Positions 6,001-64,000 of a DNA stretch of 64,000 nucleotides are shown one piece after another. The position numbers were made by a program, and so were the translations under genes. Where the stretch lies: assembly GCA_041662125.1 (NCBI GenBank), contig JBAZTA010000002.1:9064-73063 (forward strand). The letters are read 5' to 3'. Under the pieces are notes generated by a model. The model made no database searches. It had not been told where the DNA came from and saw nothing but the letters and a program-made list of their open reading frames with translations. Numbering within the stretch: position 1 is the stretch's first letter; the number at the start of each line of letters is the position of its first letter. Source of the stretch: Candidatus Omnitrophota bacterium (GTDB taxonomy: Bacteria; Omnitrophota; Gorgyraeia; Gygaellales; Profunditerraquicolaceae).

Positions 6001-9000
6001 ATCATCTGTTAACAAGAAAGCAATCTCTTATCGCTTACAAAGGAGATTTAAAAGAGTCAGCAGGTCAGCATAATAGTGTGCTTATTGAAGCAAGTGCTTC
6101 AGAAAAAATTGAATTTACGAATTATTTTACTACAAATATATTTAGTGAAACGAATACTATATTAGCTTCCTTATGTGAAGGTAGAAGTATTACAGTTGTC
6201 GTTGATGAAGTTATATTTGATTTATATAAAGATGCGGTGAGGAACTATTTAGAAAAACATAAGATTGCATTCACTTTGTATCCTTGGGCAGGGGCAGAAA
6301 GTAATAAGAATTTAGATTCAGTTTTAAGAATGATTAGTAAAGCAATAGAAGATAAAAGGGATCGCAAATCAATTTTTGTGGCAATAGGTGGTGGAGCATT
6401 AATGGATGTTGTAGGATTAGCAGCTCAGCTTTACAGAAGACAAATAGATTACATTAGAATTCCTACTACTTTGCTAGGGCTTGTTGATGCAGCGGTTGGT
6501 GTCAAAGTGGGAGTTAACTATGAAGGGCATAAGAACTTCGTCGGTAGTTTCCATGCCCCTTATGCCGTTATTAGCGATTCAGCTTTTCTTAGTACTTTAG
6601 ATGCAAGACAAATGAGGGCGGGTGTAGCAGAAATATTAAAAATAGCGATAGTATCCGATAAGGAGCTTTTTGAGCAAATTGAACAATGGGGTAAACAGTT
6701 AATTAATAATGAGCCATTTCATAAGAAAGATGGGATTATTAAACGGGCAGCTGTTGAATTATTGAAGCATCTTCAGCGCGACTTTTATGAAAGAGATTTA
6801 ATGAGACATGTAGATTTTGGCCATACTTTTGCCCATCAAATGGAAGATATGAGTAGATATTCATTATTGCATGGAGAAGCGGTAGGTATAGATATATTGT
6901 TCTCTAGTTATATTGCATTGCGGAGAGGTATTCTGCCAATTCTTGTTTTCCATAGGATTGTCAATTTGATTAAAAGTTTGGGATTACCTTTATTTGATGT
7001 CTCAATTAATTTTAATGAAATATGGAATGGTATAGAGAAAGCTAAAGCTCATAAGGGCGGCAAGCTTACAATGGTAATTCCTAAAGAAATCGGGCAGACG
7101 GTATTTATCAATTCTTTATCTAAACAGGAGATTAATGGAACCCTGGTTTATTTTAAGAAATTAAATGAAAACACGTTTCAACAAGATTCAAGTAGCCCGG
7201 TAAAATCAGAAAGGCGAGTTAAGATTGAAGAAAAACTAGCGGCGCAAGATCTGGAGCATAAGGTATATCTGATAGAACAAAAGCATATTAAACAAGTAAA
7301 AGATTTGTTTGTAAGGGGTTATGACTTTGATGTAGTTTATCATCCTGTGGAGGACTGGGATTCTGGTAAGCTATTCTCGTACTATGGAGAATTTGAACAG
7401 GTAGAAGACCCGGATGCTGGTAAGCCGTTCTCTCACTATGCAGAATTTGAATCTGCTGATAGGCCGGAAAGATTAGAAATTGTGGTCAAATCAAGCAGCG
7501 GGATAATATGGGCTTTGCCTCCAGAATTGCTGGAAATAGCATTAACTATTAGGTGTAACTTAAAGTGTCTTATTTGCTCAAGGTTTAACAATGACTGGCG
7601 TAAACAAAAATTAGCATATATATCTTTAAAGCATTTCGAGCATATTTTTTCCTCATATGATTATCCATTTCCTCGCATCCAGTTTTGTGGCACCTCAGAG
7701 CCAACGCTTAATCCTCAATTGGTGGATTTTATTCACTATGCTGCAACAAAAATGGCTTCCGGAAAAGAAATAGAGCTTATTACTAATGCTATATTACTCA
7801 CTCCTGCTCTTAGTATGGCATTAAAGGATGCAGGATTAACTTTATTAAAGGCGAGTATTGACGGCCCGGTTGAAGAAAGGTCACAAGGCGCCCCTCGACA
7901 AGCTCGGGGTAAACAGGTCTCAGGTCGCATGTTACAAGATTTTGGGTGTTTGGTGGGAGCAAGAAGCTCGACTTCACCCTTACGCGCTATAGATCAGGTT
8001 TTAAATAGTGAAAATAGAGTGTTTGGAAAGAGTATGATCCAATCGGTTATGCCTCGCGCTCCTCCGGCTATATATTCATCCGCTATTTCTATAGAAGCGA
8101 TTGGTAGGACGTTAAACCATTCAAGCAGCGCGATCACTGAAGCTCGCAACCGGCGCATATTACAGAGAGTGGTGAATTTCTTGTCAGTGAGAAATGAGTT
8201 AGAAAAAGTTGAATTGATGATGGTGTTGGGAAGTCCTGATTTGCGAATCCCGGAAGTTGCCGCTGAACTGTATAAGCAGGGTTATGCATTTAAGATAATT
8301 ACTTCCGGAGCCAGAGGCAGATGGGGTAATCAAGATTGGAAACTGACAGAAGCGCAGATTTTTAAGAAGATAATGGTAGAGAGAGGCGTGCCGAAGAAAG
8401 TTTTCTTACCGATGGATAGAAAAGCTACTAATACGGGAGCGAATTTGAGGAATATTATTGCTATTCTGAAGAAAAAGGAGATAAAGCCGGAGAGTATTTT
8501 ATTGCTTCAGACGCCTATTTCACAGAGAAGGACATGGGCTAATTTTACCCATGATTTTGAAGCGGAAAAAGGTTATTTCGGAGCAGTTAAATGTGTCAGT
8601 TATGCGCCGTATATCCCTGATGTGGCAGCAATGAGTTATGAGGAATTCTACAAGTTGCTTATTTTTACCTGGGGAGAAATAGAGCGGCTTGTTGAATATA
8701 CCTATAACGGTTGGTTAGATAAAAAGTTATCTAGAGTTTCTAAGAAAATGGTGATGCAAACAGCCGCAGCTTACATGGATGAACGAAAGAAAGAATTAGC
8801 TAAAAAGTTAGTTTCCAGTAGCCCGATACAATATACCGTTAATCGGTACCAACCTCAGGTTTATAGTGTTGATATGTGGGTTAATAAAGTTCCGAATGGA
8901 AGATATTATTTCAATAGAAAAACCAGCGTGGTTGAAACAACTATGCCTCATGATCCCAAAGCGCATGTTACAAAAATTGTAGGCAAACCAATAGAAGAAG

Positions 9001-12000
9001 CATTGGCTCAATATCAAAAGGGATTAGATAAGGATAGAATGTTGGTTAACCTTATCTTAGATGGTGACCTTTATAATAATGATTATTCCTGGACTTTTGT
9101 AAACGGGAAAATATATACTAATACCGAAGAAACAATTGAATATGCGGAGAACTTATGGTTAAAAGATATATATTTTTCCTTGATCATTCTCGAAAATGGC
9201 AGCTGGTCTATTGAAGATGTGAGAGTTAGAAACTTTGAGAAAATAGTCCATGATGATGGTTCTATAGAGTTTGTCGGCGCCAGGGTCTATCGTTTGGGTG
9301 GATCAGAGATAGAAAACGTTAAATATGCCAAATCGTTGAAAAGAAGGGTAGTCAATGGGCAGGTTGTAGATGTTGCTGATGTAGCGCTAGATTGCGCGGA
9401 TATGAATTGGCTGTTCAGGCTGCCGTTATTTAAGAAATTACAGACTGAAAAATATCGCGAGCTGTATTTTGGGACTGCAGAGTTGGCTACGGATAAGAAA
9501 AAGAGAGTTTTAGCGGCAGGCGGAGAAACTGTTGAACTTGGTTTAGCCGAATTAGACACTTTAGTATTCGGAAATAATTTAGCTGAAGAATATAAAGAAG
9601 CATTAATTGAAAAGGTGTTTGGAGATTGGGGATACGAGCGGGTAAAAGAAACAAGTGATATCATTGCCAGAGGCCAGTATGTTCTCGACCAGCAGAATAA
9701 CAAAGTTATTCTCAAGTTATTAGAAGGTATCAATCCTTTGAATCTGATCGGTATTGATAATGATGGTAATTTAGTCACTGTCGAGATCCATGGGGAAGCT
9801 CGTAAAGCAGGTGATTTGAGCACCGGGACAACCATGAATAAAGCCGCTCTTCTGATGAAGGAATTAGGTATTGTTAACGGCGGCATGTTGTCAGAGAGTA
9901 AAGATGTAAAGTGGTATAACTCGGATGGTACTTGGAAGTTCCAGTATGAAAATACTACTGCTATGGTATTTGTGACGAAAACAAAATCTGCCGGCAGCCC
10001 GATCCGCGCATTACTAGTTATAGTTGGTTTATGGGGTATAGTTTTTATTATTTGGCGTATATTCAAGAAATTGAACAGCCACTTGTTAGTAAAGCAAGTA
10101 GATATGTTGTTAGATAATACAATCCTAAGTTTATTTTCAAATCTGCACTATATTAATACCGAGATATTACAGATAGTTGAGCCGGGAACGGTTATTTTGT
10201 CAGAAACTGTAATTTTTGTGCCTAATTTATTGGCTGAATTTGATGATTCGCGTGTGGCTATAGTACATGGAGAAGGTAAAGGTAATGCTTTTATACGAGT
10301 GTCAGCGTTAAGGCAAGTTAATCCAGACAGAATTAATGATTACCATACACTTGTTTGGGAACTCCAGCGAATGGGATATACCATTAAGCATGTGGGATAT
10401 GTAGCATTTGAGAACGTTGATCTTAGTTCAGGGAAAACAAGCAGCCCGATTTTAGGAGAGTTTAGAATTAAGTGGTATCTCTGGAAACTAAGTAGTTCTG
10501 ATTCGTTCATTCAAGAAAGGGCATATAAAACTTTAAGTGAATTAGGTATAACTGTGTTACAGGTGATTCAGCGTTATAAAAAGGACGATAAAATATTAGA
10601 GGTTATTAATCGTAACATAGATTTCTTAAACTGGTATTTTAAGCGGGAATCTGTTTACAAGATTACTTGTGAATCTGGGGAGCGATGGGGAAGCGATGGG
10701 GAAGGGACAGGAGGAGCTTGTTTAAAGTCTTATTTTAATGCTAGTAGGGAGTTGGTTTATAAAGGGTATATGCGTAAGGGTGTTGGAGCAGAGGTGGACT
10801 TTGAGGAGTATGGGGAAGAGGTGGAATATCATAGTGCTGATGAATCTGAGCCTTGGTCAACTCCTTGGAAAGTGGAGACTTTTTATCGCCGTAAGATTGA
10901 ATTAGCTTTAGTGGAATTGAAAGAATTCGCTTTATCTCTTACACAGGAAAATGTGCAAGTAAAAATACACGAGTTGATGGTGAAGGCGAAATCCAGTAGT
11001 CCGATTGAGGATATACAGCAGATCACAAGCTGGGAGTCTTCTGAGGCAGTGTTTGTGTCAGAAATGCCGCTGGCCGAGGCGCCGGAATTGCTTGAGATAG
11101 AGACGTCCAATAAGTGTAATCTAGGCTGTGTCATCTGTTTCCATTCAACCAAAGAAATTAAGCAGGAGAAGCCTGCATATTTGCCTTTGCAGGATTTTAA
11201 ACGTATTCTGGATTCCTATGATTATCCTTTACCGAAGGTCCAGTTCTGCGGTTCTTCAGAGCCGACACTTCATCCTGAATTGCCGGGTTTTGTTGCTCAT
11301 GCAGCAATAATGGATCAAGGTAAAGGAGTGGAGTTGATCACGAACGCCACGCTCCTTACGGCTGAACTTGCAAAAGCTTTGAGCGATGCAGGGTTGACTT
11401 TATTGAAAGCAAGTATAGACGGTCCTGATGAGGTATCATACCGGGCGATCAGGGGACATGATCTTTATCCTGTATTGCGAAATCTTACAAGACTTTCTGA
11501 AATAACCAGTATCCCACTTTGGATAAATTGTGTGGTTACTCAGTATAATTTTAACAAACTCGCTCATATGCCTGCTCTTATTGCTTCTGTCGGTGCAAAA
11601 TATCTTGCTTTTAGGCTCTTTGAATGGCAGACCTCTAAGATTGGTACAGTAGGTTATTATGATAGCAAAGAGCTTAAAAATATGCTCGCGGCCGTGAAGG
11701 AAGAATGTGTAAAGAGAGATATCGTATTGATCTATCCGGATATAACAGAGACAGTAAATAAGGAATGTTTCTTGCAAAAAGAAGCGAATGTTAATCATCG
11801 CGGATTCTTGACACCTTGTTATTATCAACCTCGGGAATCCGTGGGTGAGAAATTAGGAGCTCGAGAGTTCTCTCAGGTCTGGAACAGCGAGGTAATGCGG
11901 AGAATCAGGGCGAATATCAATAATGGCATATATCTGCCTGAATGTTGTTGTTTGGATGCGATCTTCGCTCAGACTCAAACTGATCCTCAATTTCATTATC

Positions 12001-15000
12001 GTTCCAGCAGCGCGATGATGGGTGCCCATATAGGTAAAGGCGGGGACACTCTTGCAATAGTTGCAAGAAATGATGAGCGAGGAGTGACTCCTGCTACTTT
12101 ATCTTTACAGCTTGAGGTGAAGGATTATGTAGCGGGAGATGTTTCTGTCCCGGAGAAGAATTTTAGAATGCCTCACCAGGAACTTATATTTGTGGAAAAG
12201 GGTATAGCTAAAGTAATGCTTAAGGATATCTTGCCTAAATCTAAGGCTCAGTCAACGGAATTGTTCCAAGGAGATTCTGTCCTTAGCTTAAAGGATTTTA
12301 GGCTCAGCTTTAAAGAGCCCTCCACAGTTTCTGTCGTAAGGCAAACCCTTGAATTGAATGTTCAGAGGAACTTATCTGAAGAATTACCTGTAAGAGAGTT
12401 TAATGGGATACAGTTTCCAGAATTTATCTATGATGACAAAGGTGAATTGCTAGGTCTTGTGTTAAGGAGAAATATCGAGCCGCAGATATTCAATGTAATC
12501 ACGACAGCCTCATTTCCGATAGGCGTGGGAGTAAAACTGCCTCCAGAAACTAAGTATGCGGATAAAGCAATAGTACAGTGTCCTCGTGATAGACAAAAGG
12601 CCAAGATATTATTTTCTACAAAAGGCAGCTTAAGCGTACGTGTTTTTGACCGGGATGATACGCTTTTTAGTGTAGAAACTTTATATCCAGGAGATAAGAT
12701 CATTCTGTTGAGCGGGCATAATGTTAAATTCAATGATACAGTAAATAAACTTCTTGAAGCCGTGGAAGGGCCGTTTGAAGGAAAAGAGTTTTTTATAGAC
12801 AAGGGATTGATAGCCAGCAGCCCGATTGAAGGCGTACTATTTACCAAAATATTGAAAGCAGAAGAGTTTGAGAGTTCTGAAGAACTGCCGTTAATCGTAG
12901 AGACTATTTTTCTATTAAAGAAGGAACAGCTGCCTTTGTCAGGGCGTACACAAAAAGTAGTATATGTAGAAACTGGAAGCCTTGTTGTGACTCTGAAAGA
13001 TACTAAAACAATGTGCACCGTAGATACCGCGGACATAATCACAGTTTTTGAGCCGGCTAGCTTATATGCATTGAGAGATTCATTTATTACCATAATTAGA
13101 GAAGGCAAAGCAAATTTAAAACGCGGCCCTCCGGCAGATTCAAAGATAATTCCTGATTTAACACAACGTCCTCGTCAGTCTCCTGAAGGTGTCGCCTATC
13201 CTGAGCTTATCTTGGATACTCAAGATAAGCTATCCGCAATAATTTACAGAGCTGCCAATATATATCCAGAAAAAATGTATCCGGTCAGTATTCCTTCCGG
13301 CGCGATCGGTATTGGCGTAAAAACTGTCAACGGACCGGAAAAGCTGCATATCGAGCCGGATAACTATATGGAAGTTCTGATCGTTGTCAACGGCAGATCA
13401 CAAGCTGCATTTACCGATTCAAATTGGAACAATCCAATCTCAACAATAATTAAATCCGGCGAAAAAGTGATCATTTATCCTAACACCGGGCATGGATTTA
13501 TCTATACGGGTTGCAAGATGCTCGTTGTTATGCAAGGCCCCTTTACCGGTAATCCTAAAACGTATCCTTTAGAAAAATCCAGCAGCCCGGTACTTACTTC
13601 TGATGCGATTGTTTCACAGTGGCTTAAGTTTAATCATCCTCCTCAGAGCGTTATCCTTGGTGATGCTTTGGTGAATGTTTTTGTGACCCGGCAGGGCGTG
13701 AGCGGTTGGAATAATCATATTGCCGGCGGCACCGGACTCTACGCGAAGATCATTCCTTCCTTAACGCTTGAAGATGGTCGTTCCATTATATTTGTTGTGG
13801 GAGATATATTAGCGGTCAAGGATATTAAGCTATTGTATAAGGATGCGGAATTCTCTGAAAGTGTTAATGCTTTTGAACGCAAGGCGCGCAGGCTGCAAAC
13901 TCTTGAGCAGATGCGTTGGCCTCATGAAAGGGTTCTTTTACCCATTGTCAGACTTATGGGCTTGATGGCAGAAAAGTACCGTTTGAACGGCCGTAGTGTC
14001 ACCTTCGATTACGACGATGATAATTCCATGATACAAGCTATTGCAAGGAAAACGCTCATCTCGCTTTTATGGATACTCAAAGAAAATAATGATTCTGAGT
14101 TAGCTATTTACTTAAGCCAACGGCGTATGGATTTTGAAAAGCTCATCGCGCTTCCTGAATATGAGCTGCGCAAGTTTCCCCCTCACTTGTTTTTAAGAGC
14201 TGATCATATCCGTTGGCAGCACTATTATGAAAGCCGTAAGCATGCAGCAAATGATGATTTTCGGCAGTTGGCAGCTTTGAGAATGGAAAGCTATCCGCTG
14301 ACAGTAAAACATTTTGATATTGAGATGGTGAAATGGTTTGAGGCTTATCAGAAGCTCGGCGATTATTTGGATATTGGCTTTGAATCAGTATTCTCTCCGA
14401 TGCAAGAAGAACATGTTTCTCTGAGCCTGGCCACAGCTGCTCTGCGCGCTTTCCTTACAATTCTTTTTGAACGTCAAGACATGGTATTGCTGACTTTCGA
14501 ACGGATGAAAGGAATATCCTATGAACAGCTCTTATCTTTGTCTCGTCAAGAGCTCTTGTCTTTGCGCCTTGATCAGGTATGGTTAAGGGCTGAAGAGCTG
14601 CTTTGGCAGGAATATTCCGCAGGCAGGGATACTGATCAAGAAATCTTGCAATTTTCCCGCGAGCGTGAATTTATTTTGCGCAAGAATGAAGAGATCAGGC
14701 TTATGTCTGAGATCAATGCTTTTATTTCACAAGGCATGGGAGAACGCTTGGCAAAGAATATGGATGTGGAAGTAGAGATTGTTCAGTTGACCGATGAGCA
14801 GATAGAAAGTTCTTTAGGGATAGAGAGGTTGCGATCTGATAATGGGCAGCCAATTCAATTGAACGCCTGCACTTTCCCAGGGCTTGTTGGAAGATTAGCA
14901 TTTTTGTATGGAGACGGTGGTTATGTGCAGGGTGTTTCAGAATCAGGGGCGCTCTTCCCGATAGATTCTCAGGCTGATTTTGTAGAGGCTTTGGCGCGCG

Positions 15001-18000
15001 GTTATACTTTAGAGTTTGTGCCTGGCCGTTTTGATATCAAGGCTTTTGGCACGGTCAATCCTAAACTGCATAAGTTTGTGCATGACGGTAGAGTAGTGAC
15101 CATCCGTCAGGATGGAACGCTGGAAGGGCCCACTCAGGCTCTTCAGGAACATTTCGGCGCAAATATAACCGGTAATTTCCGTTTAGTTTTGAGCCGCGGG
15201 AATCAATCAAAAGAAGTTTCTGTAACCGAGCTCCTGGAAATACCGGGCATAATGTTTGCCAGTAAATACCAGCCGTCTTTCCCATCTCCTTCAGGAACAG
15301 AGATAGTCGATTATTCCGCGGAAGGTATGCTCGCTCAGAAGCGTTTTAATGAACTGGGAGGAGAAAGCCAGTATCACACCTTTAGTAGATTTTCTTTTGG
15401 CAGCGCTCTTAACGACGGGAAAGAAGTTGCCGGAAGCCTCAGGTTTACCAGGCTTGATCGCGGACATTCGTTGCGGTTGGTAGAAGCGCTTCAGGAATAC
15501 GCGTTAGATAAAGAAAACAGCTTGATCGGTGAGTGGAAAAATAGCGGTATGATCGATACGCGGATTGAAGAATTCTTCCGCGGGCTGGGCGTAAATTATT
15601 TTGCTCTTCTGGCGACAGGTAAGCTGTTGATCATTCTGGGCTCTGGCCGTATTTTGCATATGACGCTTCCTGTCAGGATTATGCCTCTGGATGAGACCTA
15701 TAAGTTCTTCCTCTATAACGTTGATATTATCAAAGGCCGTTTAGCAGACCTGGGCGATTATCTGGATATAAAAGAAAGTACTAATGATGTTGATACCCTA
15801 AGAGATATCCGTGAATCGACCGCGATCATGCTGGCTATGGTTTCTCAGTTGATACGTGATCTAGAAACAGCCGGAATAACTCAGGCTGATGATGCCCGCA
15901 GGCAGAAGTTCCTGGGAGCTTTTGCGGAAGGCTTTGCCAATAAAATCGTGCAAAAAGAGCTTCTTCCTGCTCCTGTTATGTTGAATGATATTACCTATAT
16001 ACGTAATGAAGAGAAGGTGCTGTATCATCGTTTGCAGCGCATATCCCGCCAGAAACTTTCAGATAATTTTGAGAATTTAGTCCATCTTCTTACTGCAAGT
16101 ATTCAGCCGGTGATGGCGCAGTGGCCGGTATTAGATTTCTCAGATCCCTTAGCTTTTAACATGAATGCCAGTGTTCCTTATCGTTTCAGCCCTTACGAAG
16201 ATTACACAGACAGAACAAAATATCCCGATCTTTGGTCAGAAACCAGGTCCGCGCTTAAGCTGCTTGCTGAGAGCCAAAGGCCTCAAGGCTACCCGGCTTA
16301 TTTCTGGAAGATCCGGGGAGAAGAGCTTGCTGAAAGAAAAGATCTTTTGGGTAATGGAGGGCGTTTGGCAAAATTGACGGGCGCTCTTCATGAAGCGTTT
16401 AGCGCGCAGAAGAATACGGTTTACGTCGATGAGCAGAAAGTATCTTTATTTGAGGCTTTAGATGAGCTTAATGTTTTGATCAAAGAGTCCAAGAAGGCTT
16501 ATCAGTCTTCCTCGAGTGCGATAGAGGCAGAAAAGGATCAGGGCTGGAACAGTGAAGGTATCTGTATCGCGGCGCAGACGTTATACCGAAACACGCAGTA
16601 CGGATGGGCGCGGCGGTTTGTTGAGGACATATATCGGGCGAACGCGGGGAGCGAGTTATTTGTGGCAGCGGCAGAGCGAGCGTTAGGGCGGTTAATGTTT
16701 GTGAAGCATTACCGAGCAGGGGTGGGATATATCACGCATCAGGTAGGGTTATTGGAAAGTGTGCCGATCGAGAAGTGGGATGAAGACAGGTCGGTGATGA
16801 AGGTATTGAAATGGTATGGGAATGGAGAGGCAGTGAGGAACGCAGAAGCGATAGAATTTATCGTATCATTTTACGGGATACTGAAGTATTGTCAAGAAGG
16901 GCAGAATCAGAGGAAATGGTTTGTAGGTGAGATATTGAGCATGTTGGCGTGCGAGGAAACAGAAAGCGTGGCGTACCACCGAGCGTTAGGGGTGTGGGAA
17001 TTGATCAAAGGGAGGGTGAGCGAAGAGCATAAGGTATGGTGGAATAAAGTAGCAGGAGAAGCTCGGTTAGATCAGGCGGTGATGAACCGGTTGAGGATAT
17101 TGCTTGGGCAGAAAGAACCGCGGGGTAAGATCAACAGAAGATCGGAATATGAGTTAGATGGTGCGCGATCGTTTAGAGAGCGGTTAGGGATATTAAAGGA
17201 AGCGATCGTGGTGGAAGGCGTTGAAGGAGTGGTATTGCAGAAGGCAAGCGGAGATTACCAGGTGACGATAGGAGCGGACCTGTTGACGCATTCAGATTGG
17301 GAGTTAGACGCGAGAGTTCGGTGGCGAAGGAAAGGCCAGCAGCAGTGGCAGAGGACAAAGATGTATAGTATTGGCGCATACCGATGGCAGGGGGTATGCG
17401 AGATAGGAAAAGATGATCCTGAGGATTACGAGTATACGTTGACGGCCTGGGTGAATGTGGGGGAGACCTGGAGACAGAATATCCGTGAGCGATGTGTGCT
17501 TGCGCCTGAAGAGATCAATGATATCAAGAGCGATGTGCTGCTGGGGATAGAGTTATTAAAGCAGATGATCACGGAATACGGGTTAGAGGGCGAAGAGGCG
17601 GGGAAGGTGAATAAGCATATTGCGTCATTAGAGATGGAAGCGCAGTACGCGGGAGATATCTGTGTGATCTCAGAGCGGGACGAGTTGAAGGAATTGATGG
17701 TGAAGTATCCGTTACGAGACCATTTGATCAGGTATGAAACATACGGGCCGCAGCTGAAGGTGGTAGGGGATAAGGTGGTCAAGAACGATAAATTGGTATG
17801 GTTATGGAATGAAAAGCCGATGGTAGATGACGGAGAGTATTCGGCAAAGAGGATTGTAGGAGAAGTAATAGAGGTAGAGATAGATACGATCATTATAGAT
17901 ACGAAACGGGTAATGTTAAAGTACCGCAGGAAGTGGCAGGCAGAGCCGTGGCAGCAGACAGTGATGGAATGTGTGAGTAGGGATGGGGTATACCGGTGGA

Positions 18001-51000: not shown

Positions 51001-54000
51001 TTATCCCTGTTTTTATGGAGCCGGCCTATACCCGGATAATGTTTACCCTTGGGCTTAATGAGTATACCCGGTATTTCCTGGTAGCCTTTGGCGAAGCGTT
51101 GGAATTGTTCTCCCGGACATTTTTCTGGACCGGCGGGCATCCGATCTGGCGGTATGTCAGGCAGGACCGCAGGGACCGAATTATCGGGTGGTTCAGGGAA
51201 AAATCAGATTCCGTATGGTATTTAAAGTTTAAGATCTGGTTAGAGGTATTTAGTCCTTCAGGGGAATTTTCTTTACCGCAGGAATTTCGCGGCACTGAGG
51301 GCAAAGCGATAGAATTATATATTATCGATAATTTCGACCAGTTTGTCACTAAGGCCGCCCGGAAGATCATTCAGGCAGAGAAAGAAAAAAATAAACGGTT
51401 TTCGGGAGAAAGGGGAAGTTCTCCTCTTACAATAAAACTTATTCTCCTTGATATGGATCAAACACTCTATACCTGCCCTCAGTTGACCCGCTCAATCCTT
51501 GAATTGAGCTATTCTTTCGCTCTTTCATTTGGCATAACCGCTTCTGAGTTAGCGCAAAGAATAAGGATTTCCGGAGGGAGCATGACGGCCGCGATCAAGT
51601 CGTTCGGGTTATCGATCGATGAGTATTTCTATTATATAGGAAAGAATTCTGTTTTCAGCGAACTCAAGCCTGAGCCGGGTTTATGGGAATTGTTTGCGCA
51701 GCTTCGCCAGGAAGGGTATTATCTGGCTATCGCTACCAACAATGGTTTGATATTAACGGACAAGATCCTGGAACGGTTGCGGCTTAAGGAGTTTATCGAT
51801 TTTACCATAACACAACAACAGACAGGCCGGGGAAAGCCTGATGAGTTGATGTTCGAGATAATATGCGAGCATTTCCATCGGCTCACCGGGGGCAATAATG
51901 AGCGGATAGTTTCAATCGGTGACCGAAAAGAGTTTGATCTGTATAGTGCGGCTCGTATCGGTATCGCGGGAATATTAGTTAAGGGGCCGCGTGATCTGGT
52001 AGAGAAACTAAAGAGAAAAATAACCGAAATAATGTTACTGCGGGCAGGGCTGTCGGCGGCAGTTCCGCACGATTTGGTCATTCCCGGCATTAACTTTGCT
52101 TCTTCTTCTGTCGTAGATCATTCATCTTCGCCGCTCGGGCCGGAAAATAGAACCGTTCCCATTTCTAAAGATTGTTTTGAAAAGGTTCAAAAAAGCGCCT
52201 TTAGCGTCATTCCGGAATATCTTTCCCTTTTCGCGACCGTTAACTTTACGGCAGCCTCACCGGTTATTACTCGAGAACTTAAAGCGATAAAAGAATTAGT
52301 GGGTTATTTAAGGGAAGGAAACGTTAAGTCCATGGGAGAGATGGAACCGTTACTCTTATTATTAAGAAGTAACTTAACCGGTTTATCCATAGAAAGCCAA
52401 GATATTGAAGTAATGTTGCAGCAGATAGAGCAAGATAAGTATAGGGTACGTCAAGAAACAAAGATTATCAAATATTTGAGGGGAGAATTTGCGGATATTG
52501 TTGATCAAGACGATAAAGAAATCGGAGTGACTGAGGTTGGATTCGCGCATATATTCGGATTAAGGCATAGAACTACAAATGCTTTTGTAGTGACTCCCGA
52601 AAATAAGATCTTATTACAGCGAAGAGCTCCGGGCCGCGCTTATGAACTATACCTTTCTATTTTTGGCGGACACCTAAAAGCTGGCCAGGGATATGTCGAG
52701 GCAATAAGGGAGGAATTACAACAAGAGTTGCATTTGGCAGGTTTACCAAAAGGCCGATTGGTCGAATTAGGTAAAGAAAGGTATGAGGTTGAAGGAGACA
52801 AAAACCGTGAATTCAGGGCGTTGTTTATCTATTTTTTGACCGATGAGGAATATCGAGAAGTAATGGATTACGCGTTGTTATTGAAGGATATTGTAAAAGT
52901 TAATACCCGGGAAGCGTTCGTTCAATATTTTGATGGAGAAAGTAAGAATATCGGTTATGGGGAAGTATGGAGTTATTGCGAGTTTGATTTGAAGGAAGTT
53001 ATCAATGCTCCTGCGAGAATGCAAAAAATAAGGGAATGGGGACAATATGCAAGCTTACATTACCTTCTTTGTAGAGATGAGTTTAAAAACGGGGCAGTTA
53101 TCTTACGGTCTTTCTTTACGCCTGATCTATTGGAACGGCTAATCCTTAATGAAAAAATATTATTATTGTTGCAAGATAATATTAGAAAACGCGATGTTAG
53201 CTCTGCTTTAGCGGCTATGCAGGATAGCAATATTATAAGTGACGATTTGCAAAAGTTTATTGAAACATTAATTGAATTATTAGGCAAAGAAAATACCATT
53301 TCGTTAATGAAACGCTTAGAAATTGCGCGGAAATTATTGTATTTCGCAAGTATAGATGAGAGCAATGTGAATATTGCCCTTTCGCTTTTTAATATCAGTT
53401 TAGCAGAAATCATAAGCAGGTTGGTAGACTACCCGTCAGGCTACTTTCTCTCTGAGGTGTCTTTTACAAAAATGCATTTTTGCCACCCCGCAAATATAGA
53501 GAAGATATTGGGTATAGAAAATATTTGTTTCGAAAGGAAGGAGGCGGATATTGTGGTAGTGGGAGCCGGTAAGATTGGAACAATGGCGGGGGGGATAATC
53601 GGAAGAATGATTAATAATAAAGCAGAAGGCATAAATCTTATAGGAGTTGTGGAGCCGTCGTTAGAAAACTCCAATAGGTTCGTTGAACATTTCAGGCGAG
53701 TAAACCATACTCAGTATGCCCCTGATATTTTTAGGAATGAAGATGAATTGAGCAAGTGTGGAAATTTTTGTCCTGATAAAACAATTGCATATATTGCGAC
53801 ACCGGATCATATGCACTACGGTTCGATCCGGCGTTTATCAGATATAGGGGTTAAAAAATTCATTTTAGAAAAACCTGTCTCCGGTTCAGTGGAAGAACTA
53901 AGAGATATGGTTGAATTTATTACAAGTAAAAAGCTCGTCGTTGTGGTTAATGAACAATATTTTTATTCTCTGGCTATGGGGATATTACAGGAGTATTTAA

Positions 54001-57000
54001 GCAGAAATATGAATATCGTTCCTTTGTTTGGAATAAATTATTGGACGAAAGATCGCAGGGAAGACGCCGCGCGCGGGAGAAATACTAATACGGCTAGTAT
54101 TTTTAATTACGATATTTTTCATCAAATTTCAACATTTTACAGTTTGTTAGGGGCACCTGCGGCGATTTCGGCTTTAAGCGAAGATATGGTGTTGGATAGA
54201 AAGGTTATCCCCGGACATGGTCAGGGAGTTGTATTTTTGCAGCATATTGCTTTTAATGGAACCGGCTCCATTTCCATGATGGACCACGAAAGAAAAGGTA
54301 AATACCATCCTACTGAGAGGGTACTAAATCTATTCGTGAGGGATTTAAAAGACGGCAAGGTTAAAGTTATAAGAGTCAACTTTGGATATGCCGATTATCT
54401 TTATAGCTATATAGATATTGCCGATGATGAAGGAAACACGCAAGTTATATCAGAAGGTATCAGGGATGATTCTATAGCTAGTTCAATGTACTATTCTATT
54501 AGAGGGTTGATAGGTCAATATAGGGTCCCGGGAGTTTTGGATAAGGTGCTCCCGATTCATGAGATAATTGCTGCAGCTGAAAAAAAGAATAGACAAGCGG
54601 TATCGAAATTTCCTCCTGTGATGAAAATTAAATCGAATGATTTTAAATCAGTGAAAAAGTTGCAAAGTGCTATTTGCGTTGTTTATCCCTCATGTGCCGT
54701 TGATGTTAAGGGAGTAAACGGAAATGTCGGCTTAGGTAATAAATGCGCTGTTACCATCCTGTGGCTGTTGGAAGGCAATGCTTGGTTGATGCATAAGGAT
54801 GTTGATACTCTTGTTTCTGTGGGCGACCAGATTGTGATAAGCGCAGGAGATAGTTTAAGGCTTTCTGGCCGGTTCAAATACCTGTCTATAGTACTGAATG
54901 TAGGAAACCCGGAAACTTGGGTCACCTCAATAACTCTTGTAAAAGATTTACCGGATGTTCCTGGGGGGTGTAATATCGCTGGAGAGAACGTGTTTAGAAG
55001 GTTATTACTGTCTTACGACCCAACAGGTATGAGGCAAGGAGTGAACGCGCACTTAGTAAGAATAAATAAGAATACGTCGGTCCCGCATTTTCATGTTAAG
55101 CAGCAGGATGAATTGTATTTAATAATGAGATCTGAAGAGTTTAGCTCGGATAATTGCTCCATCCGGGGAACCCTGGATTTATACCTGCCGAGTAATGATT
55201 TTAATAAGTATGAGCGTATCAGAGTTAAAGCTGAACCGGGAGAAATTATTTATATACCCACAGGAATAGGCCATCAGGCAGATAATATGTGGGCGTTGGT
55301 GATTGCAATTCCCGGATTTATTCCCGGTAATGAAATACCTATAGTACAGGAAAGGTTGCCTGAACTTATCGTGTGCTCTTCTGCGATACGAAAGGATGTT
55401 TTTGATGATTTTATTATTGCTCCATTTACCGGAAAAGAAAAAACGCAAGGTATGGAAGTGTTTAGTTTAATAGAACGTATGAGGGTTGAAGATTATATGG
55501 CGATAATTAGGCCGATTTTACGCACAGAACAGAGTTTCAATAAGAGCCGCGAGCTATCAAAATTAGCTGCTTCAGGAGAGTTGTTTAGGATATTCCCTTT
55601 TCTTGTAATGTTAGCGTCAAAAGAAATGCTGGGTCATCCTGCGGTTTGGGAATTTTTTGATGCGCTTGATAGGATCATGCGTTTGGATGATGAAATATTT
55701 GAAGAGAAAAGAAGATCAACGTATGTTCGGGCAGGAGGAGTGGAAAATGACCTTAAACCATTGGATTTATCAAAGAATGAGATTTTAGCCGTTTTAATAA
55801 AGCGCTTGTGGGCGGATATGAAGGAGCAGGAGAGAGAACTGTTGTTTCTAATGCCGCTTGTTATAGATATAGGTAGATGTGTGAAGCCTCAGGCGCATCC
55901 GGAAATAGCCGCAAGATATTTTATTCCTTTGGTATTAGCAAAGTTGGGCTTTAGTGATACAAAAACTGAATTAGGAGTAAATTTAGCGTTTAGTCATACA
56001 GATATCGGGACTGTGATTACTTCGGAGGCAATTCCTTCAAGGTTAAGCAGGTGGCCTCTTAGTAATCAGCGGGAATTGGATATGCTTACGGTTATTTCCA
56101 TAGCCGATAGAAGTTATGGCGCAAGAGCGGCTGATTTGACGCCTGAATTACTCGATCAGTATTTGATGTGGGGTGACTTTAAGCTAAGAAAAACTATCCT
56201 TCTTGAAGATTGGCATTTAAGAAGGTTAGGGCGTTATCTTGCATTATCTCTCGCGCAAACAAAGGAAAGGTTGACTTTTTTCATGCAACAAGAAGGGGTA
56301 TCTTATGATGATTTGTTGATCTTGGAAAGATTCTTTGGCTGGCAAATCGAATTTATCGACTATGGAGAAGCAGTGTTTAAATATTTAGCCTCACAAGATA
56401 ACAGCGGATTACTTTTAATTAAAGCGTTCTTCATTTTATCAAAGACGGTGGTTGAACTTTTAGAGAATGTTAGTCGTCTTAATTTAGTGAAAGAACGTTC
56501 TCAAATAGAACGTTTAAGCGAGGCAATAGTTCGTGCAGATGTGAATAATCCGCCTGCTTGGCATTTAAAACACTTTGCAGAATACGGGGTTCATCTTAAA
56601 GCGGCAGGAGATAAAATCGTCAATATTATCGCCGCAAGCAGTGCTATCAAAGTCGTTCATGTTTCATACCAGGATCCAAGCCATCTCGCCGGAGGCCAGG
56701 GGGTTGCCGTTTTAAATATATGCGAAGCATTGGTGCTAAAAGGGTATGAAACGGTTTGGATTTCTCCATGCGTTAAGGATGAGTTCCCGGGAGAGTTTCG
56801 ATATCTGGATGGTAAATTAAAAGTTGTAAAGATCAAGTTAGGCGATAACCCCCTTTCGCTTTTCGCAAGCAATGAAGCGACACAGGCGTATAGGGAAATC
56901 TTTGGAGATAAGTTTGTGCAATACATAAAACGTCATTATCATCCCCGGGAATGTTATATCCATCTGCATGGTTTCTTGGAGGAGCCCAGAAGAGCAAAAG

Positions 57001-60000
57001 GTTTAATGGAAAGCGGCTATAATGTTACCTCTACTTTTCACATGTTTCTTTCTCCGAGGTTAGAAGAAACAAGGGAACAACAACCGTTCCTTGCCAGATT
57101 AATAGAATTGGAGCGAGAAGCCATCGCGGCAAATGCAAAAATAATCGTAAACAGTGTAATGATGAAAAGAGAACTCCTAAGATTATGCCCTGATTACATG
57201 GGAGATTTGTTTGTTATCCCTAATGGCGTCGATGAATATCATTTCGAGATGAAAGAATTTCCTCAGAACAAAACACCGATAATATCTACTTACGGCAGGA
57301 TTTCCCCGGAAAAAGGTTTTGATATTTTTATAGAAGCGGCGAAGATTATAACCGAAAGAAGGCGCGCAGATGGTAAGCAGCCGGTTGATTTCTTGTTGTT
57401 CGGTAAGACTGATGATAGTATAGAAATTAGAAGGAAGTATAAGGAGAAATTGGAAAAATCAGCTGCTGGTTTTGATAATATCAGGCTTATTATGACGCCA
57501 GAAGGCGTGTGGGGGGCAAATAGAATAAGGCTTATCGATGAGAGTTGGGTAGGAGTAGTGCCGTCACTCTATGAGCCGTTTGGTTTGGTTTTGACGGAAT
57601 ATATGTCACGAAGAAAAGCTGTAGTAAGCACTTTGACGTATGGGGCAAGAGATATACTGGGAAAAAACAGCTTAGGAGAGAAAGGTATAGAAGAAACACT
57701 GTTTGGCCTGGTGGTAAAAACCGACGCGGTTTTTATTGCTGAAGCTATTGAACAGTTATTGAGTGATACTCGGGGAAGGATAGAGAAAGGCAATGCCGCC
57801 GGAAGAAGAGCCCTGGAGATGTATAGATGGCCAAGGATAATCAAAGACATAATTAAGGTGTATCAAAATCATGCGGCGGATCATACTCGCCCAGGAACTG
57901 GGGGGGATTTGTTTGTTTTGCGTCAAGATATTGAACACCGGTGGAATGAGTTAGTAAACAAGGAATTAGCAGAGAGAGTGGAAAATCAAGGGATACGTGA
58001 GGTTGAAACTACTGGGGATTTGAGTAAAGAAGATGGGATTATATGGTTCCCAAGATTGTTAAAATATAAAGTTTTGGATAAACCGGGTGAAATTGTAGAA
58101 TTGCCGGGTCCTTTAGCGTATCAAGAAGGAGAGTGGTTAGTACAATACAATTTGAGCAGGGGCGTCCCGCGCGGCGAAGGACAGGATAAGGCTCCTGTAG
58201 TGAAAGACCAATGTGTATTTTGCAGAATGGTAGGTAATGCTGATAATAAATTTTTGCTTATTGATTTAGAAGAGTACTTTGGCCTGCCATATAAACTTGT
58301 GGCCGACTCGCGCCCATTCTTTGATAGGCATATGCTTATTTTGGAAAAAGGGCATACAGGAGGTATTACTGTTAAAGGTATGAAAGACCTGTTGTATATA
58401 TTTAACAGATTATTCCCCGGCAGGAGAGGTAACATCGGCACCGGTAATCAAGCCGCGCATTTACATATCCATGTTTATGATATCGCTTTTCCTATTGAGC
58501 GTCAGAAGCGTGAGTGGTTATGGCAGGCTCAAGGAGTTAAAATCGGTTTGTTGGAGAACGGAATTGGTACCGCGGGATTTGTGGTGGAAGGAATTGATGC
58601 CGGTAGCTTGGCAATTAATTCATTTTGGCTTTTGGGCGAATTAGAAGCTTTGGGTTGGCTCATGGTGGTTATGACTGCCCCTCACCAGGTTTACATTATA
58701 CCGCAGAAAAGCAAGGAAATAGGCGATGCCTATCCGCCGATATTAGATGCATTTAAAAAGAACAGGCCAATTGGTATGCGGCCGCGTTATGTTGGCCCGG
58801 TCGAAGTAGCGGGTATTTGGCTTTGTTACAGCCGCGGGGATATCCACGCGATGGAAATAATGTATGAAACAATAGATTTGGAAATATATAAAAATATTTT
58901 GCGGGATACCGGAGTTAACAAAAGTGACCCGGGTGTAATAGATATAATTAATAAAATCTCTGCAAGGCAAGCATCTTCCAGTATTAAAACCGATCAAATT
59001 AAACATTTGCCGATTGATCATTTAATTGACGAAAAATGCATCTTTTTAGAGTTACACTTGACGAACCAATGCAACCAAGATTGTGATTGGTGCAGCTATA
59101 AAGAGGTCAGAAACTTTGAATATATCAAATTCGAAGATTTAGATAACGTGGCTTCTCTATCTCCGGAAGAAATCTTGATTGTTGGCGGAGGAGAGCCTAC
59201 TCTGTATGAAGACGCAGGTAAGGATTTTAATGATGCGGTGTTACGGTTAAGAAAGCTTTTGCCAATGGTAAAAATCAGGCTTATAACCAACGGAACATAC
59301 ATCCCGGAAGGGCTATGGTATAAGGAAATATCAGAAGTCAGCATATCCTTAGATGCGACCACGAGGGAAGATTATTTCAGAACGAAGAAAGTAGATTTAT
59401 TCGTTAAAGTTTGGGATAAGATTAATTGGTATTTCCGGATAAGCCGTATACCCATCGTGAGAGTTACCATGATCTATAATAAAGATAATTTGAGTAATGC
59501 GATTATCTTGGCAAGAAAACTCTGGGAGGTAGTTACAACACAAAAAGAGGGGGCTCCGGCCAATACGTCAACGTTGTGGTTTATGATATTTCCTATGGCA
59601 AATGATAAAAATTTCGCCGCGCCATACGAATCGACCGAATTGAACGATAAAGAGAAAGAAGATTGGAAAGAGAAGCTGGAAGAAATCAAGAAAACAAACT
59701 ATCCTTTTTGGGTTTTCTTAACTCAAAATACTAATCTTGCCACTCAACCATTTCGGAGGCTTTTCGTACGGCCGGCTCACTGGTGTTGGCAGGTTTCAAA
59801 TTATGTGATAGTGGGCGCGGATGGTAATTTCTATCCTTGTTTCGCAGTGTGCGAAACGCATAGAATAAATCATTTAGGATCATTGAACCAAAGCGCCAGA
59901 CAGCTTAGGGATAAGAGGGTGCAAATATTCAGAAATCCTCCTATGGAATGTAGAAAGGGTTGCAGGCCGATTACTACTTTTTACGGGATAAAATCAATGG

Positions 60001-63920: not shown

Positions 63921-64000
63921 GAGAAGCGTGAAAATAGCCTTTATCGCGGCTCACACGGGTGTATCCGCGAACAGGAGGAAGATGCCTCACGGTTGTTCAA
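63738..64000 (+). other. L,D-transpeptidase (YkuD/ErfK) catalytic domain, interrupted by the frame-0 TAG at 63918. The catalytic Cys motif lies in the -1 (frame 2) reading.
   Basis: Frame 0: IGENPGNTPLGWHRITRFDRWHKSSSYKTPDGLPAPMYWGLQLDGSRIWLHQG then RLPLLF*. Frame 2 from 63899: EIAAPLLEKRENSLYRGSHGCIREQEEDASRLF (compare YGIHGT...SHGCIRMxNEDxxELF). The junction is at the GGGG run 63896-63899. Confidence 0.65.

Follow-up and report, generated by a model that had tools for sequence, protein, structure and literature searches.

How many working radical S-adenosylmethionine (SAM) enzymes can be carried by a single bacterial polypeptide, and do they act together or each on its own? The question is raised by 64,000 nucleotides (nt) of contig JBAZTA010000002.1 (positions 9,064 to 73,063) from the Candidatus Omnitrophota assembly GCA_041662125.1, referred to here as the window, in which three radical-SAM cores (rSAM1, rSAM2 and rSAM3, from 5' to 3') are encoded in the same reading frame. 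The reading we favour, with a probability of roughly 0.6, is that of a giant multi-enzyme protein in which rSAM2 and rSAM3 are complete, independent cassettes, probably for carbohydrate-type substrates, and rSAM1 is a non-catalytic half-domain.

Three radical-SAM cores in one frame

No stop codon was found in frame 3 of the forward strand between nt 3 and nt 63998, while each of the other five frames contained 746-1973. Because frame 3 overruns both ends of the window, no forward-strand open reading frame (ORF) appeared in the ORF list. More than 25 distinct Pfam families tile this frame, and with at least 10,000 amino acids (aa), many enzyme families and no dominant repeat it shows the layout of the giant multi-enzyme proteins of Omnitrophota. 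The only large internal repeat, identified by comparing the frame with itself by BLAST, consisted of three GlgE-like modules. Judged by its translation, the window encodes an inner section of a multi-enzyme protein of more than 21,332 aa, of the class described for Omnitrophota, and the first-pass annotation was right to place all three cores in one protein.

A chimera of separate genes, joined during assembly or annotation, would be another source of such a long frame. No source for the giant gene was matched in the public collections searched: a close relative was not found among GTDB species representatives, JGI metagenome contigs or the proteins of the protein database, and the best partial relatives were a radical-SAM cassette with 45% identity (contig L004) and a DUF218 module with 60% identity (contig L084). 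Stop codons also separate some of the modules in L084. However, 21,332 sense codons in a row are not producible by chance or by genes joined with intergenic DNA, the modules are joined by short in-frame linkers whose peptide motif is conserved while its codons vary, and comparable ORFs are documented from complete long-read genomes. We give an artefact next to no weight.

A regular-expression search over the 21,332 aa of the translation returned exactly three CxxxCxxC motifs (aa 2518, 3705 and 19690), compared with about 0.015 expected by chance, both analytically (0.88% Cys) and from 2000 shuffles. The motifs CNLKCLIC, CNLGCVIC and CNQDCDWC occurred at nt 7554-7577, 11115-11138 and 59070-59093, respectively, all in frame 3 of the forward strand, and strings and coordinates reproduced those of the first-pass annotation exactly. 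All cores exceeded the gathering threshold of Pfam Radical_SAM (PF04055, 29.5 bits, profile length 166), with 31.2, 64.3 and 41.0 bits over profile positions 3-115, 1-150 and 3-133 for cores 1, 2 and 3, respectively. The assignment was to be given up if the profile match failed beyond the Cys triad or if the glycine-rich SAM-binding motif was absent, and neither was the case in any core, as CG(T/S)SEPTL was present in cores 1 and 2 and GGGEPTL in core 3. The six-stranded partial TIM barrel, (beta/alpha)6, was seen in the AlphaFold2 (AF2) models of rSAM2 and rSAM3 and is incomplete in rSAM1 as judged by its coverage of the family profile. The count of three radical-SAM cores therefore stands by Pfam score, but the first of them has to be narrowed to a truncated half-domain. 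Cores 1 and 2 are separated by 1,187 residues, and cores 2 and 3 by about 16,000 residues.

Two complete cores and a constrained half-domain

The radical-SAM cluster of rSAM2 is assigned to Cys 3705, 3709 and 3712. Candidate auxiliary Cys occurred at positions 3922, 3939, 3981 and 3983 in the pattern Cx11Gx4C...CxC, with CCC at 3981-3983. The triad, Cys3749 (within QFCG) and these four positions were invariant or nearly invariant over 21 members of the family. On the family hidden Markov model (HMM), rSAM2 reached 415 bits over positions 5-307 of 309 (379-415 bits across scorings), and its standalone homologues stop about 10 aa past the CxC. The AF2 model of the module, derived from a 15-sequence alignment, had a predicted local distance difference test score (pLDDT) of 81.5 and showed six beta strands as well as a C-terminal beta-hairpin/helix domain. 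The top Foldseek matches of this model in the PDB were SkfB, SuiB, BlsE, DesII, GDGT-MAS, MoaA, PqqE, viperin, anSME and BtrN. Directly after rSAM2, two weak repeats (23%; aa 4059-4275 and 4317-4530, nt ~12177-13592) without a Pfam match were observed, which appear cupin-like by eye and one of which aligns at 28% with a segment of L084.

The first-pass annotation had set the third core apart as a separate lineage near the 3' end with a Cys-rich auxiliary region, in agreement with what was found for rSAM3. Its cluster Cys are 19690, 19694 and 19697, and its candidate auxiliary Cys are 19928, 19946 and 19987, with 19950 and 19983 in addition, in the pattern Cx12Gx4C...Cx3C. Both Cys19928-x12-G-x4-Cys19946 and Cys19987 are conserved among eight rSAM3 homologues. 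Relatives of rSAM3 are scarcer than those of rSAM2, the best being a 625-aa protein with 32% identity and non-canonical Cys spacing. Its AF2 model contained six strands at a pLDDT of 67.6, and its Foldseek neighbours were viperin, SkfB, MoaA, CteB, BlsE and DesII. By sequence comparison, rSAM2 and rSAM3 belong to two different, sparsely populated subfamilies.

Both complete modules are predicted to be twitch-like, with one auxiliary cluster each. The motif of this truncated SPASM type, CX9-15GX4C with further Cys, is present in the sequences of both. Of the seven-Cys SPASM motif (CX9-15GX4C-gap-CX2CX5CX3C-gap-C) only the first half occurs in either module, and the CX2CX5CX3C half is absent. 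The Pfam SPASM profile (PF13186, threshold 21.5 bits) matched rSAM2 below threshold with 18.1 bits, and the L004 homologue just above it with 22.0 bits. What had been described as SPASM-like stretches is thus a Cys-rich auxiliary motif as claimed, but a partial, twitch-like one. NCBIfam N_Twi_rSAM scored 59.1 bits on rSAM2, below its cut-off of 170. Named identities were rejected on score for viperin (viperin_w_prok, 33-44 bits, cut-off 180), MoaA (moaA, 34-66 bits, cut-off 284), PqqE (30-50 bits, cut-off 381), BtrN (E = 0.002 only in the PDB sequence search), and HxsC and PapB (NCBIfam).

The modules resemble the twitch enzymes BtrN, SpeY, MoaA, SkfB and BlsE, all of them structural neighbours of the models, in that a (beta/alpha)6 core precedes a short C-terminal domain in which CX9-15GX4C is accompanied by more Cys for one auxiliary cluster. 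Unlike these enzymes, to which the Foldseek identity is 13-20%, they reach no family cut-off, and the rSAM2-type SAM motif reads G(T/S)SEP and not GGE. With the SPASM maturases (anSME, PqqE, SuiB and CteB; PF13186/TIGR04085) they have the CX9-15GX4C half in common, whereas CX2CX5CX3C...C is missing and only CxC/CCC (rSAM2) or Cx3C (rSAM3) remains, which would serve one cluster and not two. The recognition element (RRE) of ribosomally synthesised and post-translationally modified peptide (RiPP) pathways is also lacking.

In contrast to the two complete modules, rSAM1 covers only positions 8-138 of the 309 positions of the family HMM, the N-terminal ~40% of the domain. Cores 1 and 2 had been presented as a paralogous pair with about 60% identity over about 130 aa. 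The paralogy is real, with 58% identity (68/117 aa, E = 1e-43) between aa 2507-2624 and 3694-3810 in BLASTP, but extends over about 120 aa and not 130. The similarity breaks off directly after ASIDGP(V/D)E, and the duplicated block of the whole-frame comparison spans only ~121 aa, which ruled out a larger segmental duplication around the two cores. The motifs CX3CX2C, YDYP, QFCGTSEPTL, ELITNA and ASIDGP are present in rSAM1, that is, the cluster loop, the SAM motif, the ELITN strand and the SIDGP strand, while beta5, beta6 and the auxiliary-cluster domain are missing. A C-terminal half beyond HMM position ~138 was found in none of three frames of nt 7440-8300 by tblastn with rSAM2 or by the family HMM, and a frameshift was thereby ruled out as the cause of the truncation. 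Nor was a detached C-terminal half found when the 21,332 aa of the ORF, which extends past the window, were scanned with the family HMM. At aa ~2625-2678 only a vestige of the family's alpha4-beta5 region is recognisable, in weak BLASTP alignments to P0001 and P0031 that reach aa ~2655-2671. As everything after strand beta4 has been lost, rSAM1 is presumably unable to form a full active site, and without beta5-beta6 and the auxiliary domain only two of the three cores look catalytically complete.

The retained half of rSAM1 is nevertheless conserved. It keeps 14 of 14 family-invariant residues of the N-terminal half, and on a family HMM built without rSAM2 the N-terminal halves of rSAM1 and rSAM2 scored 158 and 171 bits, with mean identities to the other family members of 44.8 and 45.6%, respectively. 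The two cores are 63% identical in DNA and use the same codon at 29 of their 68 identical residues, with dN ~0.3, dS saturated and dN/dS 0.09-0.19. These values indicate that the retained half is under purifying selection. By origin, rSAM1 is probably an old duplicate of the rSAM2 type, formed within the gene or the lineage. The drifted, near-random tail beside a conserved head argues for selection on the head during much of the time since duplication, although a fairly recent deletion may also account for the contrast. The conservation suggests a residual role for rSAM1 as a putative Fe-S-binding or structural element and not as a radical enzyme.

The truncation of rSAM1 and the decay of its tail could also be taken to mean that no core is catalytic, all of them being relics in the course of decay or Fe-S-binding domains with a purely structural role, carried by an ORF whose only requirement is an uninterrupted frame, and the mosaic nature of the ORF with its recent duplications would fit such a state. 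This is very unlikely, as rSAM2 matches the full family HMM at the score given above and retains all invariant residues including the auxiliary Cys, rSAM3 keeps every position that is invariant among its homologues, and dN/dS lies far below 1.

Substrates and independence of the cassettes

For rSAM2 and rSAM3 alike, a [4Fe-4S] cluster would be held by the CX3CX2C site and SAM by the GxxEP motif, within a predicted six-stranded partial TIM barrel followed by the twitch-like domain. By analogy with the superfamily mechanism, each module would cleave SAM reductively to a 5'-deoxyadenosyl radical, which would abstract a hydrogen from the module's own substrate. The conserved Cys of each twitch-like domain are predicted to suffice for one auxiliary Fe-S cluster, which may function in electron transfer or substrate binding as in BtrN, MoaA and anSME.

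Small carbohydrate-type molecules (sugars, nucleotide-sugars or cyclitols), and not peptides, are suggested as substrates by the context of the modules, since an RRE domain and a full SPASM domain are absent and the neighbours are sugar enzymes. These comprise SDR, ROK, an EEVS/DDGS-like cyclase, three GlgE-like modules, GH77, GT4, HAD, NUDIX, GFO_IDH and a PPDK-like dikinase. The frame as a whole has, as far as its domain matches indicate, a theme of carbohydrate, alpha-glucan and cyclitol metabolism combined with nucleotide second-messenger signalling. Several points weigh against the reading of two complete, sugar-directed cassettes. No NCBIfam model reached its cut-off (best score 92.6 bits, cut-off 380), and hence no functional equivalog is available for the modules. 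The Foldseek neighbours mix peptide maturases (SkfB, SuiB, PqqE and CteB) with sugar and nucleotide enzymes, the radical-SAM cassettes of other giant ORFs have different neighbours, so that adjacency says little about substrates, and the confidence of the rSAM3 model is moderate.

The first-pass annotation had proposed that multiple radical-SAM units point to complex chemistry on a product or to maturation of a peptide or of the protein itself. Maturases that introduce thioether or C-C links or epimerised residues, either into a small precursor peptide or into the giant protein itself, would be in line with the presence of SkfB, SuiB, PqqE, CteB and anSME among the top Foldseek matches. The best NCBIfam scores of rSAM2, to W_rSAM_matur and rSAM_Geo_metal, and of rSAM3, to W_rSAM_matur, HxsC and PapB (29.6 bits, near full length), point in the same direction, but all of them are far under their cut-offs. 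The distance from the junction motif to CX3CX2C is only 30-41 aa in the modules, ~10-25 aa precede CX3CX2C in standalone homologues, and these ~10-40 residues leave no room for an RRE or PqqD-like domain; a Pfam match upstream of either complete core was not found at E<=0.01. Each module has one twitch-like auxiliary site, while most RiPP maturases typically have a seven-Cys SPASM domain. Among the ORFs listed for the related loci L006-L008, in which no systematic search was made, no short gene resembling a precursor was noticed, and both the genomic and the intragenic context consist of carbohydrate enzymes and LacI regulators. Peptide or protein maturation is thus unlikely, and the wide spacing of the cores and the incompleteness of rSAM1 also speak against the multi-unit chemistry proposed with it.

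The distribution of the rSAM2 family bears on whether the cassettes depend on each other. A search of 1.84 billion representative proteins with the family HMM returned a sharply delimited group of about 21 proteins above 240 bits, half of them standalone proteins of ~300 aa and half embedded in proteins of 600-1,900 aa that are probably truncated by contig ends. Among GTDB representatives, close members were found only in three Omnitrophota metagenome-assembled genomes (MAGs), one genome labelled Planctomycetia and one labelled Woesearchaeota, and the closest matches, in Omnitrophota MAGs, were 37-45% identical. On L004, an Omnitrophota contig, the cassette lies in a multi-enzyme frame of at least 4,574 aa together with Ldh, Bac_transf, ribulose-phosphate epimerase, adenosine deaminase-like, uridine-kinase-like and HD modules. 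The cassette is all that this frame and the window have in common, which indicates that it is mobile between architectures. At two independent loci a LacI-family regulator lies directly upstream of the rSAM2-type gene (L006, 7407-8438; L008, 5208-6251). A GlmU-like nucleotidyltransferase/hexapeptide (acetyltransferase) gene follows downstream on L008, and P0012, a distant relative, carries sugar nucleotidyltransferase domains in fusion. These are further hints at carbohydrate-type substrates. A common neighbourhood of rSAM2-type cassettes was rejected, given L004 and the mere LacI and GlmU-like hints of the standalone loci. The closest standalone homologue, P0001, is encoded on contig L001 (565-1473). 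The gene upstream of it (1-546) encodes an HExxH protein with a KASSSI stretch of its own and is in frame with the radical-SAM gene, from which it is separated by one stop codon and 18 nt.

Because of their wide separation and different ancestry, the modules most likely act independently. A concerted unit, in which the three cores act sequentially on one product in the manner of an assembly line and rSAM1 contributes, would be consistent with their presence on one polypeptide and with the purifying selection on rSAM1. Multi-core proteins also exist elsewhere: the metagenomic proteins P0093, P0083, P0049 and P0106 (1,200-2,300 aa) have at least three radical-SAM cores per chain at distances of ~400-800 residues, so that several cores per polypeptide are not unique to the window. 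Some of these multi-core proteins additionally contain SDR or an apparent B12-type N-terminal radical-SAM domain. In the window, however, the intervals between cores are filled with unrelated domains, junction motifs and predicted transmembrane (TM) segments, and half of the barrel is missing from rSAM1. Elsewhere the rSAM2-type cassette is found by itself, both within further giant ORFs and as a gene of its own. On L084, the module upstream of the related DUF218 is not a radical-SAM half-domain, and rSAM1 is therefore no fixed partner of DUF218. Concerted action is quite unlikely on these grounds. FbiC, a fusion of CofG and CofH, has two adjacent radical-SAM cores for one pathway step sequence. 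The window shares with it the presence of more than one core per polypeptide, but its cores are thousands of residues and unrelated enzymes apart, and one of them is truncated.

Junction motif, surrounding modules and relation to known giants

The modules are bounded by a recurrent serine motif. The tripeptide SSS occurred 32 times in frame 3, compared with ~6 expected, and nearly always preceded P, A or S followed by I or V. SSSP was observed 12 times (0.2 expected) and SSSA 9 times (0.37 expected), while the relaxed motif [STAGN]SS[PA][IVLM] with its variants gave 40 sites against 1.7 +/- 1.2 in shuffles. The commonest forms were (K/R)SSSP(I/V) and SSSAI, with sites for example at nt 3960, 7188, 8121, 8814, 10992, 12003, 13578, 19584, 25839, 29493 and 49062. 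Many different codons are used for the junction serines, which places the constraint on the peptide and not on the DNA. Of the strict SSS sites, 30 of 31 lay outside Pfam envelopes (P ~0.001), and several sites fell a few residues before the first strand of a domain or after its last helix; SSS-AITITGHTGDIG, for instance, starts the Rossmann fold of SDR. In both AF2 models the motif sits in segments with a pLDDT below 50. The same junction flanks the 60%-identical DUF218 module on the related metagenome contig L084, where it recurs five times, and it was absent from the giant ORF of L004. A literature search for SSSP[IV] and SSSAI gave nothing relevant, and a search with related terms did not turn up the SSS-[P/A]-[I/V] junction in the text of the two preprints on giant proteins (10.1101/2023.11.21.568195; 10.64898/2026.06.07.730766). 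The motif may be a lineage-specific junction, serving either as a linker or as a processing site.

If the sites were processed, the giant ORF would be a bacterial polyprotein, with the ~40 [S/A/T/G]SS-[P/A]-[I/V/L] motifs, mostly between domains, as processing or hand-over sites. In that case the two complete radical-SAM cassettes would be set free as standalone-like twitch enzymes, or would function as such, and would tailor a C7-cyclitol or alpha-glucan-derived product of the SDR/ROK/sedoheptulose-7-phosphate-cyclase and GlgE/GH77 modules, with the rSAM1 half as an Fe-S or docking element. This combination is possible but rather doubtful, and our preference remains with the independent cassettes of a multi-enzyme protein. 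The features of the frame are listed in Table 1.

Table 1. Modules, junctions and other features of frame 3, with positions in the window. Assignments are predictions from sequence comparison.
Feature	Position (nt)	Residues (aa)	Strand	Description
Giant ORF	3..63998		+ (frame 3)	21,332 codons, stop-free, open at both window ends
Modules upstream of rSAM1				PRTase-like (weak), SDR epimerase/dehydratase, ROK kinase, DHQS-like cyclase (Pfam, in order)
Sugar-phosphate cyclase	6123..7040	2041-2346	+	Pfam DHQ_synthase N and C domains; ~170 aa upstream of rSAM1
Junction KSSSGI	7491..7499		+	opens rSAM1 module
rSAM1	7518..7907	2506-2635	+	truncated N-terminal half of rSAM2-type domain
rSAM1 decayed tail	7908..8120	2636-2706	+	runs to next SSS junction
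Junction HSSSAI	8121..8129		+	closes rSAM1 module, opens DUF218 module
Modules from rSAM1 to rSAM2				rSAM1, DUF218, NAGPA (weak), strong hydrophobic segment, rSAM2 (Pfam, in order)
Hydrophobic segment ALLVIVGLWGIVFIIWRIF	10008..10064	3336-3354	+	candidate TM helix, Kyte-Doolittle 19-residue mean 2.46
Junction KSSSPI	10992..11000		+	opens rSAM2 module; module residues 1-17 pLDDT <50
rSAM2	11070..11978	3690-3992	+	complete radical-SAM core and twitch-like auxiliary domain
Junction RSSSAM	12003..12011		+	closes rSAM2 module
Modules after rSAM2				two cupin-like repeats (no Pfam call), three GlgE-like modules, ParE-like (weak) (in order)
Signalling and glucan block				membrane segments and GGDEF, RelA_SpoT, GH77, TPR (Pfam, in order)
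GH77 amylomaltase		11131-11756	+	downstream of GlgE modules
Modules before rSAM3				methyltransferase, HD_4, HAD, NUDIX, GFO_IDH_MocA, GT4 (Pfam, in order)
Junction ASSSIK	58974..58982		+	opens rSAM3 module; module residues 1-19 pLDDT <50
rSAM3	59031..60017	19677-20005	+	complete core of different subfamily and twitch-like region
Modules from rSAM3 onward				rSAM3, PPDK_N and PEP-utilizers, YkuD (Pfam, in order)
PPDK_N ATP-grasp and PEP-utilizers swivel	60087..61406	20029-20468	+	Pfam 219 and 37 bits

The cyclase is nearer to sedoheptulose-7-phosphate cyclases than to AroB and stays under the NCBIfam aroB cut-offs. Its best PDB matches were the EEVS ValA (4p53, 217 bits) and DDGS (5tpr, 212 bits), compared with at most 169 bits for true DHQS. 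Consecutive SDR, ROK and cyclase modules occupy nt 3972-7040 (aa 1324-2346) directly upstream of rSAM1, a trio which we take to resemble the start of C7-cyclitol (carbasugar) pathways. Further downstream, three tandem GlgE-like maltosyltransferase modules, each composed of GlgE_dom_N_S, alpha-amylase and GLGE_C, extend over nt 16506-25961 (aa 5501-8653). Copies 1 and 3 share 86% identity, and copy 2 shares ~48-62% with either of them, which suggests a recent internal duplication. Past the third copy, a weak ParE-toxin-like match was observed at aa 8933-8999 (nt ~26799-26999; 22.1 bits, threshold 23). At the other end, rSAM3 adjoins PPDK_N directly with no junction motif in between, the next being TSSPV at aa 21033 and a strict SSS at aa 21270. 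A PEP-utilizers_C barrel was not detected with the PPDK_N/PEP-utilizers module, and its architecture of PPDK_N and swivel domain is presumably like that of glucan/water-dikinase or rifampicin-phosphotransferase-type enzymes.

Second-messenger modules within the metabolic frame comprise GGDEF (aa 9437-9595, 142 bits), a RelA_SpoT synthetase (aa 10223-10339) and an HD_4 hydrolase (aa 16852-16987). Seven hydrophobic 19-mers are candidate TM segments (aa 3336, 9243, 9388, 10105, 15482, 15516 and 21082; nt ~10008, 27729, 28164, 30315, 46446, 46548 and 63246), with a cluster ahead of GGDEF and one segment ahead of the C-terminal YkuD L,D-transpeptidase domain. The strongest, aa 3336-3354, lies between rSAM1 and rSAM2 just past the weak NAGPA match. 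These segments were called by a crude hydropathy heuristic, whose topology around GGDEF is inconsistent and was not built upon. The coding strand is purine-skewed with 16,162 G and 10,774 C, a GC skew of +0.20 at an overall GC content of 42%.

Radical-SAM cassettes in giant Omnitrophota proteins are already published, and the window adds a further example. Among 779 Pfam-positive Omnitrophota proteins with a length of at least 10,000 aa, 90 were reported to contain PF04055, which falls in a sugar-metabolism co-occurrence community with GT1 and ROK, and a class of "multi-enzyme metabolic cluster" was distinguished among these proteins (10.64898/2026.06.07.730766). Radical_SAM, PPDK_N, NUDIX, GGDEF and HAD_2 were drawn on giant proteins by West-Roberts et al. 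2023, who state that the cleavage points of giant proteins are unknown (10.1101/2023.11.21.568195). Like these multi-enzyme giants, the window shows more than 10,000 aa of uninterrupted ORF, covered by Radical_SAM, ROK, GT1/GT4, HAD_2, NUDIX, GGDEF, PPDK_N, methyltransferase, TPR and HD, with few TM segments, and the closest genome matches of its rSAM2-type cassette are mostly Omnitrophota MAGs. A difference is the SSS-[P/A]-[I/V] junction, which was found neither in the text of these two preprints nor in the giant ORF of L004.

Giant multi-enzyme ORFs are a recently recognised oddity, for which it is at issue whether they function as a single chain or as cut pieces. The radical-SAM content by itself adds little, being already listed for giant proteins. 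Of more use might be a small twitch subfamily, with genome-assigned members mostly in Omnitrophota MAGs, whose cassette occurs now as a standalone gene and now within a giant ORF, a halved radical-SAM domain that appears to stay under purifying selection despite the loss of its catalytic half, and a sharply over-represented junction motif that marks concrete candidate sites of module boundaries or of cleavage. The junction motif and the constrained rSAM1 half-domain are the parts most worth following.

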